From Escherichia coli (GTDB lineage Bacteria > Pseudomonadota > Gammaproteobacteria > Enterobacterales > Enterobacteriaceae): DNA of 60,537 nt. Shown here in pieces: positions 1-38,826 of the stretch (its first letter is position 1; the number at the start of each line of letters is the position of its first letter). The position numbers and the translations under genes were made by a program. The notes below the pieces were generated by a model that was given only the letters and a program-made list of their open reading frames with translations, did no database searches and was not told the DNA's origin. The stretch lies in NCBI RefSeq assembly GCF_003334255.1, contig NZ_QOWU01000027.1. The stretch is one strand, 5' to 3'.

Positions 1-2351
1 AGTTATCGTGAGAGTAATTCATCGGCACGTTAAATCATATCAGGCGTAATACCACAACCCTTAAGTTAGCGCTTATGAGTAGTCTCCCCTCCCTGGCTTT
101 CGAAAAAGAAAAAATCGCCGATTCCGGTGCTGGATTTAGCGCCATTAGGCATTGAGCCAATCTGTTATCTGACAGAAGAAATCAGTAATCAACTTTTGGC
201 GAAATATATCTGGTATTCAAAACACATCACGGTTAGCCATGAAGAAAGTACTACCAACCTGTTGGCAAGGATGGGTTTTCAACGACGGATCGCTGGTACA
301 TATATTAAAGCTCCCGAAGCGGTAGTTGAGGCATGGCTAAATGAAGATTATTCAACCTTACTAAGTGAATTTAAGGTGTTTCATTCACCTACCGGGCATT
401 ATTGGCAGTTGGGGATTTTGACAACATTGCCGCTGGAGAAAGCAGTAAAAGCATGGAATGCCCTTACCCTATCTCCACATACCGATACCGAATACTCCAT
501 GTTACATTTTGGACTCAAAGGGTTACCTGGGTTAGTAAACTCACTTGCACGCTATCCACAAGAAGCCTTGCCCATCACGAATTACTTCGCAGCGAGTGAG
601 CTGGCACCTGCCGTCGCCCGCGCCTTCAACAAACTCAAAACCCTACGACAAGACGCCCGTAGCTGGCTGCTAAAATACCCGGAACATGCCATAACCGGCC
701 TGCTACCTGCGGCGCTCGGCAAAGCCGGTGAAGCCCAGGATAACGCCCGCGCTGCCTTGCGTATGCTTACCGAAAACGGTCATCAGCCATTACTGCAAGA
801 AATCGCCCGGCGTTATAACCAGCCGGAAGTAACAGACGCGGTGAACGCTCTGCTTGCGCTCGATCCCTTAGATAATCACCCGACAAAAATCCCCACTCTT
901 CCGGCCTTTTATCAGCCATCGCTCTGGACGCGCCCGGTATTAAAAGCAAACGCCCAATCACTGCCAGATAACGCCCTCCTCCACCTCGGTGAAATGCTCC
1001 GCTTCCCTCAGGAAGAGGCTCTATATCCGGGATTATTGCAGGTGAAAGATGCCTGTACCGCCGACTCACTGGCTGAATTTGCCTGGGATCTGTTTACCGC
1101 CTGGCAGACCGCTGGCGCGCCGTCGAAAGAAAGCTGGGCGTTCACTGCGTTAGGCGTTCTCGGTAACGATGACACCGCCCGCAAACTGACGCCATTAATC
1201 CGCGCCTGGCCTGGCGAATCTCAGCATAAACGTGCCACCGTTGGGTTGGATATTCTCGCTGCTATCGGTAGTGATATCGCCCTGATGCAGCTTAACGGCA
1301 TCGCCCAGAAACTGAAATTCAAAGCATTACAGGAGCGGGCAAAAGAAAAAATTGCCGACATTGCCGAAAGTCGCGAACTCACGGTGGCGGAGCTTGAAGA
1401 TCGGTTAGCACCGGATCTCGGTCTGGATGATAACGGTTCGCTGCTGCTGGATTTCGGCCCACGTCAGTTCACCGTCAGCTTTGATGAAACCTTAAAACCG
1501 TTTGTGCGCGATGCTTCCGGCAGCCGCCTGAAAGACCTGCCCAAACCAAACAAAAGCGATGATGAATCGCGGGCTGATGAGGCGGTTAACCGCTACAAAC
1601 TGCTGAAAAAAGATGCGCGTACCGTCGCCGCCCAGCAGGTGGCAAGGCTTGAATCCGCCATGTGCCTGCGCCGCCGCTGGTCACCAGAAAACTTCCAGCT
1701 CTTCCTGGTTGAGCACCCGATGGTTCGCCACTTAACCCGACGTCTGATTTGGGGCGTTTATAGCGCCGACAACCAGCTACAGGCGTGCTTTAGGGTAGCG
1801 GAAGATAACAGCTACAGCACCGCTGACGATGATCTTTTCACCCTGCCGGAAGGCGATATCTCTCTTGGTATTCCTCACGTTCTGGAAATATCACCGACGG
1901 ATGCTGCCGCCTTTGGTCAGCTTTTGCCGACTACGAACTGCTACCACCGTTCCGTCAGCTTGACCGTAACAGTTACGCCCTGACAGAAGCCGAGCGCAAT
2001 GCCAGCGAATTGATCCGCTGGGCAGGCAGAAAATGCCCGAGTGGTCGGGTAATGGGGCTGGCGAATAAAGGCTGGATAAAGGGCACCCCGCAGGATGCAG
2101 GCTGGATCGGCTGGATGATCAAACCTCTCGGTCGCTGGTCGTTAATCATGGAAATCGATGAAGGCTTTGCGGTAGGCATGTCGCCAGCCGAACTCAGCGC
2201 TGAGCAGCTCTTAAGCAAGCTGTGGCTATGGGAAGGCAAAGCAGAAAGATATGGCTGGGGGAGTAATTCAACACAGGAAGCGCAGTTCTCCGTAATCGAT
2301 GCCATCACCGCCAGCGAGCTAATTAACGATATTGAAGCCCTGTTTGAATAA
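1..2351 (+). pseudogene. molR: molR-like giant DUF4132-family gene, 3' portion, disrupted; window-truncated at 5' end
   Basis: ORF 127..1983 (GTG at 127, frame open back to 79) aligns block-for-block with YehI residues ~440-1150 (GEMLRF, FAWDLFTAWQ, LDFGPRQFTV, RLIWGVY). The homologous reading continues in another frame as ORF 2010..2351 (FADYELLPPFRQL...). The frame switch maps to a T-run at 1922-1925. Stops in all three frames within 1..78. Confidence 0.8.
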
Positions 2352-2360
2352 GGAAAGAGC

Positions 2361-5300
2361 ATGGACAAGGAATTACCGTGGCTGGCGGATAACGCCCAAC
2401 TGGAACTGAAATATAAAAAAGGCAAAACGCCGCTCAGTCATCGTCGCTGGCCGGGCGAACCAGTGTCCGTTATCACTGGAAGTCTCATCCAGACATTGGG
2501 TGATGAATTGCTACAAAAAGCTGAGAAGAAAAAAAACATTGTCTGGCGTTATGAGAATTTTTCACTGGAGTGGCAGTCCGCCATCACGCAGGCCATCAAC
2601 TTGATCGGCGAACACAAACCCTCAATCCCGGCCCGGACAATGGCGGCGCTAGCCTGTATCGCGCAAAATGACAGCCAACAGTTGCTCGACGAAATCGTCC
2701 AACAAGAGGGGCTGGAATATGCGACTGAGGTGGTGATTGCACGCCAGTTTATTGCGCGGTGTTATGAGAGTGATCCTCTGGTAGTGACATTGCAGTATCA
2801 GGACGAGGATTATGGCTATGGTTATCGCTCAGAAACCTATAACGAATTCGATCTCCGACTGCGTAAGCATCTCTCTCTGGCAGAGGAAAGCTGCTGGCAG
2901 CGTTGCGCCGACAAACTCATTGCCGCACTACCAGGAATAACCAAAGTTCGCCGCCCTTTTATTGCGCTGATCCTCCCGGAAAAACCAGAAATAGCCAATG
3001 AGTTGGTAGGCCTTGAATGCCCGCGAACTCATTTTCATTCTAAGGAGTGGTTAAAAGTTGTTGCTAATGACCCCACAGCGGTGAGAAAACTCGAACACTA
3101 CTGGAGCCAGGATATATTTAGCGATCGAGAAGCCAGCTACATGTCGCATGAAAACCACTTCGGCTACGCGGCCTGCGCCGCCCTTTTGCGCGAACAAGGA
3201 CTGGCAGCCATTCCGCGCCTCGCGATGTATGCCCATAAAGAAGATTGCGGCAGTCTGCTGGTACAAATTAACCATCCGCAAGTCATCCGCACCTTGCTAC
3301 TGGTGGCTGATAAAAACAAACCCAGCCTGCAACGTGTGGCTAAATACAGTAAAAACTTCCCCCATGCGACGCTCGCCGCACTGGCAGAACTGCTGGCGTT
3401 AACAGAACCACCAGCCCGCCCTGGTTATCCAATCATCGAAGACAAAAAGCTGCCTGCACAGCAAAAAGCACGCGATGAATACTGGCGTACGCTGTTACAA
3501 ACGCTGATGGCATCGCAGCCACAACTGGCAGCAGAAGTGATGCCGTGGTTAAGTACTCAACCCCAGTCAGTGCTGAAGAGTTATTTATCGGCACCGCCCA
3601 AACCGGTTATTGATGGCACCGATAACAGCAATCTGCCAGAAATCCTCGTTTCACCACCGTGGCGTAGTAAGAAAAAAATGACAGCTCCACGTCTTGATTT
3701 GGCACCGCTCGAATTAACTCCGCAAGTTTACTGGCAACCAGGCGAACAAGAGAGGCTTGCCGCCACTGAGCCTGCCCGTTATTTCAGCACGGAATCTCTT
3801 GCGCAACGCATGGAACAAAAAAGTGGACGAGTTGTATTACAGGAACTGGGTTTTGGGGATGATGTATGGCTGTTTCTGAATTATATACTCCCCGGAAAAC
3901 TGGATGCTGCACGCAATTCACTCATTGTTCAGTGGCATTACTACCAGGGGCGGGTTGAAGAGATCCTGAATGGCTGGAACTCCCCGGAAGCACAATTAGC
4001 AGAACAGGCGCTCCGCAGCGGTCACATAGAAGCGTTAATTAACATATGGGAAAATGACAACTACTCACGTTATCGTCCGGAAAAGAGTGTCTGGAACCTG
4101 TATTTATTGGCACAGTTGCCGCGTGAGATGGCTTTGACCTTCTGGCTGCGTATCAATGAGAAAAAGCATCTGTTCGCGGGTGAGGACTATTTTCTCAGTA
4201 TCCTCGGATTGGATGCGCTACCAGGTCTGCTGTTGGCTTTTTCACATCGTCCAAAAGAAACATTTCCGTTAATTTTAAATTTCGGCGCAACAGAACTGGC
4301 CCTGCCCGTTGCCCGCGTCTGGCACCGTTTTGCGGGCCAGCGTAATCTGGCTCGCCAGTGGATTTTACAATGGCCGGAACATACGGCTACTGCACTTATT
4401 CCACTCGTCTTTGTTAAACCCTGCGACAACAGCGAAGCGGCATTATTTGCCCTTCGTTTACTGTATGAACAAGGACATAGTGAATTACTGCAAACGGTTG
4501 CAAACCGCTGGGATCGCGCTGATATGTGGCCAGCCCTGGAAAAAATACTTACCCAGAACCCGATGGAAATTTACCCGGCACGCATTCCAAAAGCCCCTGA
4601 TTTCTGGCATCCGCAAATGTGGTCCAGGCCGCGCCTTATCACTAATAATCAAACTGTTACCAATGACGCTCTGGAAATTATCGGCGAAATGCTGCGCTTT
4701 ACCCAGGGGGGACGTTTTTATAGCGGGCTGGAACAACTGAAAACGTTCTGCCAGCCACAAACGCTGGCAGCTTTTGCCTGGGATCTCTTCACTGCGTGGC
4801 AACAAGCTGGTGCCCCCGCAAAAGACAACTGGGCATTTCTGGCGTTAAGTCTCTTTGGTGACGAAAGCACGGCACGGGATCTGACGACACAGATCCTCGC
4901 CTGGCCACAAGAAGGCAAATCTGCCCGTGCTGTCAGCGGCCTGAACATCCTTACCCTGATGAATAATGATATGGCGCTGATACAGCTGCATCATATATCG
5001 CAACGGGCTAAATCCCGCCCCTTACGTGATAACGCGGCGGAATTTCTTCAGGTGGTCGCAGAAAATCGCGGGCTAAGCCAGGAAGAGCTAGCGGACAGAT
5101 TAGTCCCAACCCTGGGCCTTGATGATCCGCAGGCGTTGAGTTTTGATTTTGGTCCCCGGCAGTTTACCGTTCGCTTCGATGAAAATCTCAACCCGGTTAT
5201 CTTTGATCAGCAAAACGTTCGCCAGAAAAGCGTTCCCCGTTTGCGCGCCGATGACGATCAACTGAAAGCGCCCGAGGCACTGGCCCGACTAAAAGGGCTA

Positions 5301-5993
5301 AAAAAAGATGCTACTCAGGTGAGCAAAAACCTGCTCCCGCGTCTTGAAACGGCCCTACGTACCACCCGACGCTGGTCGCTGGCAGATTTTCATTCTCTGT
5401 TTGTTAATCATCCCTTTACCCGTCTGGTTACCCAGCGATTAATATGGGGGGTTTATCCGGCAAATGAACCGCGTTGTTTACTCAAAGCCTTTCGTGTGGC
5501 CGCAGAGGGGGAGTTCTGCAATGCGCAAGATGAGCCAATTGACCTGCCTGCGGACGCTCTGATTGGCATTGCCCACCCGTTAGAAATGACAGCAGAAATG
5601 CGCAGTGAATTTGCACAGCTTTTTGCCGATTACGAAATTATGCCGCCTTTTCGCCAGTTGTCGCGCCGCACGGTGCTGCTCACACCTGACGAGTCAACCA
5701 GTAACAGCCTGACTCGCTGGGAAGGTAAATCCGCTACCGTTGGGCAACTTATGGGAATGCGATACAAAGGCTGGGAGTCAGGCTATGAGGACGCATTTGT
5801 CTATAACCTGGGTGAGTACCGGCTGGTCCTTAAGTTTTCACCCGGTTTTAACCACTACAATGTTGATAGCAAAGCGCTAATGAGCTTCCGTTCTCTTCGA
5901 GTGTACCGTGACAATAAATCCGTCACTTTTGCCGAACTTGATGTGTTTGATTTGAGTGAGGCGTTAAGCGCACCTGACGTCATTTTCCATTAA
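2361..5993 (+). CDS. yehI: YehI, large DUF4132-family protein of unknown function (1210 aa)
   Basis: Single ORF of 1210 aa; ATG at 2361 preceded by AAGGAAAGAG; C-terminal ~700 aa paralogous to the molR fragment upstream. Confidence 0.93.
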   Translation: MDKELPWLADNAQLELKYKKGKTPLSHRRWPGEPVSVITGSLIQTLGDELLQKAEKKKNIVWRYENFSLEWQSAITQAINLIGEHKPSIPARTMAALACIAQNDSQQLLDEIVQQEGLEYATEVVIARQFIARCYESDPLVVTLQYQDEDYGYGYRSETYNEFDLRLRKHLSLAEESCWQRCADKLIAALPGITKVRRPFIALILPEKPEIANELVGLECPRTHFHSKEWLKVVANDPTAVRKLEHYWSQDIFSDREASYMSHENHFGYAACAALLREQGLAAIPRLAMYAHKEDCGSLLVQINHPQVIRTLLLVADKNKPSLQRVAKYSKNFPHATLAALAELLALTEPPARPGYPIIEDKKLPAQQKARDEYWRTLLQTLMASQPQLAAEVMPWLSTQPQSVLKSYLSAPPKPVIDGTDNSNLPEILVSPPWRSKKKMTAPRLDLAPLELTPQVYWQPGEQERLAATEPARYFSTESLAQRMEQKSGRVVLQELGFGDDVWLFLNYILPGKLDAARNSLIVQWHYYQGRVEEILNGWNSPEAQLAEQALRSGHIEALINIWENDNYSRYRPEKSVWNLYLLAQLPREMALTFWLRINEKKHLFAGEDYFLSILGLDALPGLLLAFSHRPKETFPLILNFGATELALPVARVWHRFAGQRNLARQWILQWPEHTATALIPLVFVKPCDNSEAALFALRLLYEQGHSELLQTVANRWDRADMWPALEKILTQNPMEIYPARIPKAPDFWHPQMWSRPRLITNNQTVTNDALEIIGEMLRFTQGGRFYSGLEQLKTFCQPQTLAAFAWDLFTAWQQAGAPAKDNWAFLALSLFGDESTARDLTTQILAWPQEGKSARAVSGLNILTLMNNDMALIQLHHISQRAKSRPLRDNAAEFLQVVAENRGLSQEELADRLVPTLGLDDPQALSFDFGPRQFTVRFDENLNPVIFDQQNVRQKSVPRLRADDDQLKAPEALARLKGLKKDATQVSKNLLPRLETALRTTRRWSLADFHSLFVNHPFTRLVTQRLIWGVYPANEPRCLLKAFRVAAEGEFCNAQDEPIDLPADALIGIAHPLEMTAEMRSEFAQLFADYEIMPPFRQLSRRTVLLTPDESTSNSLTRWEGKSATVGQLMGMRYKGWESGYEDAFVYNLGEYRLVLKFSPGFNHYNVDSKALMSFRSLRVYRDNKSVTFAELDVFDLSEALSAPDVIFH

Positions 5994-6053
5994 AACACAG
6001 CGGGCAGTGATGCAACTGCCCGTTATCAACACGACTTACCAGCGGGGAAAGCG

Positions 6054-6371
6054 ATGATCGTGCAAAAAGAGCTGGTTGCTATTTACGATTATGAGGTCCC
6101 TGTACCTGAAGATCCGTTTTCCTTCAGACTTGAGATCCATAAATGCTCTGAATTATTTACAGGTTCCGTCTATCGACTGGAGCGATTCCGGCTACGTCCA
6201 ACATTTCATCAACGTGATCGAGAAGATGCTGACCCGCTAATAAATGATGCGTTGATTTATATAAGAGATGAGTGTATTGATGAGCGGAAATTACGAGGTG
6301 AATCACCTGAAACTGTAATAGCAATTTTTAATCGTGAACTACAGAATATATTCAACCAAGAAATAGAATAA
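6054..6371 (+). CDS. yehK: YehK, small protein of unknown function (105 aa)
   Basis: ORF 6054..6371; GGGGAAAG upstream of ATG; length matches E. coli YehK. Confidence 0.85.
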   Translation: MIVQKELVAIYDYEVPVPEDPFSFRLEIHKCSELFTGSVYRLERFRLRPTFHQRDREDADPLINDALIYIRDECIDERKLRGESPETVIAIFNRELQNIFNQEIE

Positions 6372-6540
6372 TATACTCTAAATAATTCAAATTGGTCCGA
6401 TCCGGCGCAACGTCCCAATGGCCTGGATTATAAATCTCATTATCTTAATTGCAACGGGGTCCAGCCGTGGTTATAATTCGTTCGTTGGAACACGATGTTG
6501 CACAGGCTGTGGTGTTAGGCCTGAAAATAGTAAATAAAAG

Positions 6541-6572
6541 AACCTGCCTCACCAGCAGGTTTTTTTATTTAC
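6541..6572 (+). terminator. Rho-independent terminator (hairpin ACCTGC-CTCACCA-GCAGGT followed by T7)
   Basis: Perfect 6-bp GC-rich stem, 7-nt loop, then TTTTTTTATTT on the + strand, about 170 bp downstream of the yehK stop. Confidence 0.8.
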
Positions 6573-6677
6573 TGTGATCTGCTTTCCAGATATTTTTCGC
6601 TCAAACAACTAATGCGCCAAACATTTATTGCGCGTAAAATATCGTTTATTTCATTAATACATTTCAGGGATGAATAT

Positions 6678-11185: not shown

Positions 11186-13182
11186 ATTCACTACGTCCGG
11201 AATTATTAGAACTGACACCGCAGGCACTGACGGCGTTAAGCAATGCCGGTTTTGTTAAGCGCAGTCTTAAGGAACTGGAAAATGGCAACGTCCCGGAAAT
11301 CAGCCATGAGAACGGCGCTTTAATCGCCACCTTCAGTGACGGTGTCCATACCCAGCTGGCGAACGGCCAGGCACTGAAAGAGGCTCAGTGCACCTGTGGG
11401 GCCAGCGGCATGTGCCGTCATCGCGTGATGCTGGTGTTAAGTTATCAACGACTTTGTGCTACCGCCCAGCCTACGGGAAAAGAAGAGGAATGGGATCCGG
11501 CAATCTGGCTGGAAGAACTGGCTACCCTTCCCGATGCCACCCGCAAACGCGCACAGGTATTGGTCGCTAAAGGCATCACCATTGAGTTGTTATGTGCGCC
11601 GGGTGAAATTCCCTCTGCCCGCTTACCGATGAGCGATGTGCGTTTTTATTCCCGCAGCAGTATTCGTTTCGCCCGTTGTGATTGTATTGAAGGCACACTT
11701 TGCGAACATGTCGTACTGGCTGTGCAGGCCTTCGTCGAGGCCAAAGCGCAGCAAGCGGAATTTACTCATTTAATCTGGCAGATGCGCAGCGAACACGTCA
11801 CATCATCTGACGATCCGTTTGCCAGCGAAGAGGGCAACGCGTGTCGTCAATATGTTCAGCAATTAAGCCAGACATTATGGCTTGGCGGCATCAGCCAGCC
11901 GCTTATTCACTACGAGGCAGCATTCAACCGCGCATTGCAGGCGGCAGAGACCTGCAACTGGCGCTGGGTGAGTGAATCGCTACGGCAACTGCGCGCCAGC
12001 GTTGATGCCTTCCACGCCCGCGCCAGCCACTATAATGCCGGAGAATGCTTACATCAGCTTGCGGCATTAAACAGTCGATTAAATTGCGCACAAGAGATGG
12101 CCCGGCGCGACAGTATTGGTGAAGTTCCTCCTGTGCCGTGGCGCACGGTCGTTGGCTCTGGCATTGCCGGAGAAGCAAAGCTTGATCATCTGCGGCTGGT
12201 GTCTTTAGGTATGCGTTGCTGGCAGGATATTGAGCATTATGGTTTACGCATCTGGTTTACCGATCCCGACACCGGCAGTATTTTGCACCTTTCGCGCAGT
12301 TGGCCGCGAAGTGAACAGGAAAACTCACCGGCAGCTACGCGTCGGCTGTTTAGTTTTCAGGCTGGCGCACTGGCGGGCGGGCAAATTGTTTCACAAGCAG
12401 CAAAACGCAGTGCCGATGGCGAGCTGCTGTTAGCTACCCGCAACCGCTTAAGCAGCGTTGTGCCGCTGTCGCCTGATGCCTGGCAAATGTTGAGCGCGCC
12501 GTTACGCCAGCCGGGCATTGTGGCTTTGCGGGAATATTTACGCCAGCGTCCCCCCGCCTGCATACGGCCTCTTAATCAGGTCGATAACTTATTTATTCTG
12601 CCGGTCGCTGAGTGTATTTCGCTCGGTTGGGATAGCAGCCGCCAGACGCTGGATGCGCAGGTAATCAGCGGCGAAGGTGAAGATAATCTGCTGACGTTAT
12701 CACTGCCAGCCTCAGCCAGCGCGCCTTATGCCGTTGAACGCATGGCGGCGCTTTTGCAACAAACAGACGACCCCGTGTGTCTGGTTTCTGGCTTTGTCAG
12801 TTTTGTTGATGGGCAATTGACACTGGAACCACAGGTAATTATGACAAAGACTCGTGCCTGGGCGCTGGACGCTGAAACTGCGCCTGTGGCACCACTACCT
12901 TCTGCCAGCGTTTTGCCTGTGCCGTCTACTGCTCATCAGTTGCTGATGCGCTGCCAGGCGTTACTTATTCAACTGCTCCATAACGGCTGGCGCTATCAGG
13001 AACAGAGCGCTATTAGTCAGGCAGAGTTGCTGGCGAATGACCTCACCGCGGTGGGTTTTTATCGGCTGGCACATGTGTTGGGGCAATTTCGTAATACAGA
13101 AAGCGAGGCACGGGTAGAAGCAATAAATAACGGTGTTTTGCTTTGCGAACAATTATTCCCCATGCTTCAGCAACAAGGATGA
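11182..13182 (+). CDS. yehQ: YehQ, protein with two SWIM-type zinc-finger motifs (C-x-C-x5-C-x-H)
   Basis: ORF track 11158..13182; start ATG 11182 (MNSLRPELL) overlaps the yehP stop as ATGA. CTCGASGMCRH at ~11389-11421 and CDCIEGTLCEH at ~11677-11710. Exact start is uncertain. Confidence 0.82.
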   Translation: MNSLRPELLELTPQALTALSNAGFVKRSLKELENGNVPEISHENGALIATFSDGVHTQLANGQALKEAQCTCGASGMCRHRVMLVLSYQRLCATAQPTGKEEEWDPAIWLEELATLPDATRKRAQVLVAKGITIELLCAPGEIPSARLPMSDVRFYSRSSIRFARCDCIEGTLCEHVVLAVQAFVEAKAQQAEFTHLIWQMRSEHVTSSDDPFASEEGNACRQYVQQLSQTLWLGGISQPLIHYEAAFNRALQAAETCNWRWVSESLRQLRASVDAFHARASHYNAGECLHQLAALNSRLNCAQEMARRDSIGEVPPVPWRTVVGSGIAGEAKLDHLRLVSLGMRCWQDIEHYGLRIWFTDPDTGSILHLSRSWPRSEQENSPAATRRLFSFQAGALAGGQIVSQAAKRSADGELLLATRNRLSSVVPLSPDAWQMLSAPLRQPGIVALREYLRQRPPACIRPLNQVDNLFILPVAECISLGWDSSRQTLDAQVISGEGEDNLLTLSLPASASAPYAVERMAALLQQTDDPVCLVSGFVSFVDGQLTLEPQVIMTKTRAWALDAETAPVAPLPSASVLPVPSTAHQLLMRCQALLIQLLHNGWRYQEQSAISQAELLANDLTAVGFYRLAHVLGQFRNTESEARVEAINNGVLLCEQLFPMLQQQG

Positions 13183-38584: not shown

Positions 38585-38591
38585 AACCAGA

Positions 38592-38775
38592 GACGCATCC
38601 GGCATTTGGTTCCTGTCGCCGGATGCGGCTTGAACGCCTTATCCGGCCTACAAAACCATACAAATCAGTATGTTGAGCTTATTGTAGGCCGGATAAAACG
38701 CGCCAGCGTTGCATCCGGCATTTGGCTCCTGTTGCCGGATGCGGCGTGAACGCCTTATCCGGCCTACAAAACCAC
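38592..38775. repeat. BIME cluster (several REP units in alternating orientation)
   Basis: Repeated GCCGGATGCGGC(T/G)TGAACGCCTTATCCGGCCTACAAAACC units and inverted copies between preA and mglC. Confidence 0.88.
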
Positions 38776-38826
38776 ACAGATCATGATGTTATGTGCGTTT
38801 ATGACCGAATGCGGACCACATTCACA

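Follow-up and report, generated by a model that had tools for sequence, protein, structure and literature searches.

The window, which is the whole 60,537-nt stretch of Escherichia coli DNA that was analysed, opens with the end of an insertion sequence, followed by the C-terminal part of molR (yehH) and then by its paralogue yehI. When window 1-2400 was searched by megablast against 5426 complete E. coli genomes, positions 78-2400 proved to be the gene between metG and yehI, whose product is annotated by PGAP as a "DUF4132" or a "WGR and DUF4132" domain-containing protein. Synteny of molR was confirmed as metG - molR - yehI - yehK - yehLMPQ, with the window running into yehI at position 2361. 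One paper names molR (yehH) as a gene presumed to regulate molybdate metabolism, gives it as "disrupted in K12" and has it activated by BglJ-RcsB (PMC3950696). The features of the locus are as follows:

1..77, minus strand: right end of IS421 (IS4-like), from a 100% match to IS421 copies on many chromosomes and plasmids
78..88, plus strand: right copy of the IS421 target-site duplication, AGTAGTCTCC(C), 10-11 bp, from strain G1/2 (L001) compared with strain LB14b (L002)
79..1924, plus strand: C-terminal fragment of molR/yehH in its native frame (frame 1), codons 508-1122 of a 1264-codon gene
1922..1925, plus strand: lesion, four T (T4) where intact alleles have five (T5), from alignment to intact alleles
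1924..1983, plus strand: out-of-frame tail of 19 aberrant codons, LPTTNCYHRSVSLTVTVTP, and a TGA at 1981-1983, from translation of the reading frame
1926..2351, plus strand: remainder of molR in frame 3, native residues 1124-1264 with the native stop at 2349-2351, from translation of the repaired frame
2361..5993, plus strand: yehI, an intact 1210-residue DUF4132 paralogue directly 3' of molR, from the open reading frame and annotation

The T-run lesion and the IS421 insertion

Positions 1918-1928 of the window read CAGCTTTTGCC, with the T4 run at 1922-1925. The frame-1 open reading frame (127..1983) finishes with ...AAFGQLLPTTNCYHRSVSLTVTVTP at the premature TGA, and from the same starting point frame 3 reads FADYELLPPFRQLDRNSYALTEAERNAS... 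and stays open to the stop at 2349-2351. When window 78-2351 was aligned with the intact alleles of LB14b (L002) and 2-331 (L004) and with the K-12 allele (L003), the sole gap was one T missing at the run; apart from the run, LB14b differed from the window by a single SNP. Restoring one T fused frame 1 to frame 3. The -1 deletion falls at Leu1122/Phe1123 and changes CTT TTT GCC to CTT TTG CC, and the translation of 79..1924 upstream of it equals the LB14b protein (WP_001215622.1) save one Thr to Ala change at window 1147. The segment 1926..2351 receives no translation from the molR start.

The sequence-only reading had proposed that one extra T would join the two frames, and the intact alleles, which hold exactly CAGCTTTTTGCC at this site, bear this out. 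The frames, their positions and their register with YehI are all present in the sequence as that reading described them, and alignment turned up no intact orthologue that differed here in such a way that a 1-nt insertion left the frames apart, the finding it had named as speaking against its claim. Its assertion that the inactivation of molR maps to the T-run holds in so far as the lesion is pseudogenising, but the gene is also split by IS421 near codon 508.

The consequences for the protein were followed on the intact LB14b orthologue (WP_001215622.1), which has 1264 residues. The WGR domain (PF05406) lies at its N-terminus, at residues 6-69 (E = 1.8e-18). In G1/2 this N-terminal part is upstream of the insertion sequence, outside the region covered by the window, and is annotated as 'WGR domain-containing protein, missing C-terminus'. 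With the T restored, the window encodes a 757-residue fragment that matches the LB14b protein except for one missense change, and Pfam found DUF4132 (PF13569) in it over model positions 1-179 of 179 (E = 3.2e-50), unbroken over the junction, at fragment residues 481-666 (988-1173 of the full-length protein). In the unrepaired window this domain is cut at residue 1122. Since the T-run spans codons Leu1122 and Phe1123, the frameshift costs the protein 142 native residues, 51 of which form the end of the 186-residue DUF4132, and adds 19 wrong ones. Truncation of DUF4132, a domain of unknown function, suggests that molR has probably lost its function in the window. A PADLOC search with MolR and YehI gave no match, and an NCBIfam search returned no family that would give a function, its only match, over the WGR region, being sub-threshold.

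Only the last 77 nt of IS421 are within the window, and the full insert was read from G1/2. The terminal inverted repeat, ...CCCTTAAGTTAGCGCTTATG, ends at window 77 and molR sequence restarts at 78. The transposase is encoded on the minus strand, with its start codon at 22-20, and the annotated IS421 transposase coding sequence of G1/2 ends at L001 4022, which corresponds to window 22. Comparison of G1/2 with the intact LB14b locus showed AGTAGTCTCCC flanking both sides of a 1335-1336 bp insert with the inverted repeat CATAAGCGCTAACTTAAGGGTTG at both ends; inverted repeats, a target duplication and an annotated IS421 family transposase, the features of membership in IS421, are thus all present. 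IS421 interrupts the gene at about position 1520, close to codon 508 and 1.85 kb upstream of the T-run. Window 1-77 has stops in all three frames because it is the right end of IS421, which identifies the further upstream lesion that had been predicted from stops in 1-78.

The paralogue yehI carries a homologous run. At the homologous site the YehI protein reads ...EFAQLFADYEIMPPFRQL... and the DNA reads CAGCTTTTTGCCGAT, with T5 at window 5620-5624. The run CAGCTTTTTGCCGA was T5 in every fetched locus containing the site (43 loci fetched), and since yehI keeps the homologous T5 run it can be used as an internal control.

Relatives of the window allele and T-run length in E. coli

The best match to window 1-2400 was strain G1/2, with 100% identity. 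Its locus (H4P46_RS08810/RS08815/RS08820) is annotated as an N-terminal WGR fragment followed by an IS421 family transposase and then by the C-terminal DUF4132 fragment, and its RefSeq sequence shares both the IS421 junction and the T4 of the window. PGAP describes the C-terminal fragment as 'DUF4132 domain-containing protein; frameshifted; incomplete; missing N-terminus', so that RefSeq already flags the G1/2 locus as "frameshifted; incomplete". The window comes from a genome other than G1/2: the two differ by 4 mismatches in 17,016 nt, with no gaps in 17 kb, after which G1/2 has a prophage that is absent from the window. This lambdoid prophage of ~33 kb lies at window ~17016, beside btsS/yehU, and several of its genes are annotated as frameshifted.

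K-12 molR (yehH; molR_1/2/3) occupies the same locus between metG and yehI, encodes the same WGR and DUF4132 protein at about 97.7% DNA identity, and is also a pseudogene with multiple lesions. The lesions are different ones. In K-12, codon 275 is a stop, one G has been gained near codon 949 (near gene position 2846), and the run is T5, whereas the window has neither the stop nor the added G and carries the T4 deletion and IS421 instead. We considered whether the window holds the K-12 pseudogene, and this was ruled out by the T5 of K-12 and its different lesions. Judged by its sequence, the molR allele belongs to an E. coli that is not K-12 and is a close relative of G1/2.

Because a test against chance does not apply to a single defined lesion, the lengths of the T-run in the population served as the control. 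T4 was found in 6 of the 4862 complete E. coli genomes having the site (with a 41-mer able to seed on T4 alone); a T4 28-mer was absent in 4856 of the 4862, and T5 was essentially universal. A T6 42-mer was found in 0 of 5426 complete genomes. Among metagenome contigs a T4 37-mer gave 0 contigs and the T5 38-mer control gave 24, and since the control did find contigs, the zero reflects no more than the rarity of T4. Across the 43 fetched loci, T5 was read at the molR site in L002-L004, L008 and L011-L043, and T4 only in the window and the six T4 genomes.

The six T4 genomes are G1/2, G6/7, G8, Z1323HEC0011, Combat13F7 and VTB96935v. The first three share the IS421 junction of the window, and no IS was found in the molR regions fetched from the other three. 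In Z1323HEC0011 the T4 is the sole length difference from LB14b, the gene is one SNP from that of G1/2, and over window 78-6335 (molR and yehI) only 5 positions differ from the window. With T4 as the only lesion of an otherwise intact allele in this strain, T4 alone is sufficient to truncate MolR. Combat13F7 and VTB96935v carry a mosaic molR allele that departs from the window at two sites over its 3' 1.8 kb, among them a G at window 1864. At least 23 other genomes of that haplotype have T5, so T4 arose at least twice.

We rejected a single origin of all T4 alleles as the simplest reading, given that the T4 of the Combat13F7 type sits on the haplotype with G at window 1864, of which those 23 or more other genomes have T5.

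Several other features were noted in the window and its relatives. A run of eight A in yehI at window 2529-2536 (codons ~57-59) is A9 in Combat13F7 and VTB96935v, where it frameshifts yehI, and these two genomes have homopolymer lesions in both paralogues (yehI A9 and molR T4). The yehK region at window 6336-6604 has about 86% identity to Z1323HEC0011, with indels; there a 354-nt hypothetical gene replaces the 318-nt yehK, and the shared molR-yehI haplotype block ends at this point. Relative to LB14b and Z1323HEC0011, window 11927-11951 shows a cluster of compensating small indels and substitutions that leaves the net length unchanged and maps within yehR or at the yehR/yehQ boundary in the annotations of those two strains. 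At window 32488, in a spacer near dusC/yohJ, the window has A7 where LB14b has A6, the only other single-base homopolymer difference seen in about 47 kb of alignment. The preA-mglC spacer (38587-38790) holds two 88-nt direct repeats, 89% alike and 116 nt apart, with GCCGGATGCGGCGTGAACGCCTTATCCGGCCTAC-type palindromes; these resemble ordinary REP/BIME elements.

Order of events and alternative explanations

We consider it very probable that the window carries a genuine T5 to T4 deletion together with IS421, and that molR/yehH is a doubly disrupted, decaying pseudogene and not a switch. Most likely, replication slippage on the short T homopolymer removed one T. The loss shifts the frame after Leu1122, with 19 wrong residues and a stop in place of the last 142, and IS421 independently breaks the gene near codon 508.

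The order of the two events is less certain. The IS421 junction of the window was observed in eight genomes: the three G strains, which have T4, and five pig ETEC, which have T5. The ETEC molR allele is K-12-like, including the internal stop, and has 91 differences from G1/2. IS421 thus occupies an identical molR site, with orientation and duplication also shared (window 1-88; L001 2731-4088; L008 3202-4561), on two allele backgrounds, the G strains and the window being LB14b-like and the five pig ETEC K-12-like with the codon-275 stop. Such sharing would point to either a target hot spot or transfer by recombination. The ETEC and G-strain alleles are identical over gene positions 1123 to 2049, which bracket the IS site, and flanking SNPs therefore cannot separate the two.

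A frameshift that preceded IS421 in the lineage of the window is weakly suggested by Z1323HEC0011, where T4 occurs without the IS on the same allele. The reverse order would make IS421 the inactivating event, with the T lost later as a neutral change in an already dead fragment. We regard this as the less probable course, with a chance that is nevertheless appreciable. The five pig ETEC genomes match the IS421 junction over 100/100 nt in the same site and orientation and with the same duplication while still having T5, so that a state with the IS and T5 does exist, and the fragment 3' of IS421 has no obvious promoter of its own. Possible explanations of this ETEC state are an IS-first order, an IS421 hot spot, or recombination. 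The K-12-like ETEC allele is, however, too different from that of G1/2 to be a direct ancestor, no genome was found that combines the allele of the window, the IS and T5, and Z1323HEC0011 is only one SNP off the window-type allele but has T4 with no IS.

The remaining explanations deny or bypass the lesion. Homopolymer miscalls are common in long-read assemblies, and the missing T could be an error of sequencing or assembly in a gene that is in frame at this site in the real organism; the several 'frameshifted' prophage genes in the G1/2 record hint at indel errors in that assembly, and yehI is frameshifted as well in Combat13F7 and VTB96935v. We find this very unlikely, as T4 was read in six separate assemblies besides the window, and these cluster by haplotype (the three G strains with the window, the two Combat-type genomes, and Z1323HEC0011) and are not scattered among the 4862. 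Homopolymers elsewhere argue the same way: over about 47 kb the window and LB14b differ by one base in only a single further run, located in a spacer, and the homologous T5 of yehI reads correctly in all T4 genomes. Recoding fares worst of all, and we give hardly any credence to programmed ribosomal frameshifting or transcriptional slippage that would bypass the lesion and yield a full-length product. Nothing speaks for it beyond the presence of a short T-run; CAGCUUUUGCC (CAG CUU UUG CCG) does not have the X XXY YYZ form of a slippery heptamer, and transcriptional slippage needs far more than four U residues. The orthologues are plainly in frame with T5 and do not conserve the shifted arrangement, and the N-terminal 507 codons are separated from the fragment by IS421.

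The T-run might also act as a phase-variable contingency tract and turn molR on and off reversibly, and the sequence-only reading had left this choice open by calling the slip pseudogenising or phase-variable. The lesion does lie inside a homopolymer, and T4 did arise at least twice. Contingency tracts typically measure 7 nt or more and show frequent gain and loss among close relatives. The molR run, in contrast, has only 5 nt and was seen only as T5 or T4, with about 99.9% of genomes having T5, T4 limited to the 6 noted above and T6 never seen. It also lies towards the 3' end of the gene, which is 3.8 kb long, and not near the start, and molR in this genome is irreversibly split by IS421. We therefore take a reversible switch to be extremely improbable, and of the two descriptions only the pseudogenising one stood. 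The rarity of T4, the lack of T6 and the presence of T4 on at least two haplotypes together indicate a sporadic slippage mutation.

Decay of molR and comparison with known systems

Eight genomes were sampled at decreasing similarity; six have an intact molR, and the other two, C325 (internal stop) and O157:H7 86-24 (frameshift), carry it as a pseudogene. The gene is usually intact, yet it has been broken independently in several lineages. One may ask whether the T5 run and the A8 run of yehI are recurrently hit sites for an adaptive loss of MolR/YehI, in which case the repeated pseudogenisation (K-12, O157:H7, C325, ETEC, G strains and the Combat13F7 type) would represent selected loss and not neutral decay; we hold this to be a long shot. 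The molR T4 and IS421 of the window are ordinary decay of a gene of unknown function. The value of the result is mainly in correct annotation, in that molR here has its own lesions (IS421 and the T5 to T4 change), the second being a rare sporadic allele, and is no regulatory switch. The repeated independent breakage of molR may be mildly useful to studies of the uncharacterised WGR and DUF4132 family.

Compared with known systems, the molR T-run resembles the phase-variable tracts of Neisseria and Haemophilus in that a change of homopolymer length switches the frame, but, measured against those contingency loci, it has too few nucleotides, lies a long way from the 5' end and shows no two-way length polymorphism. 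It also resembles spontaneous indels in mononucleotide runs, an established class of indel hot spot in E. coli (PMC8510543). As in those indels, the molR T4 is a single-base homopolymer loss, here recurring on two haplotypes; nothing about it is unusual among slippage indels, and a run of 5 nt fits the observed allele frequency of about 0.1%.
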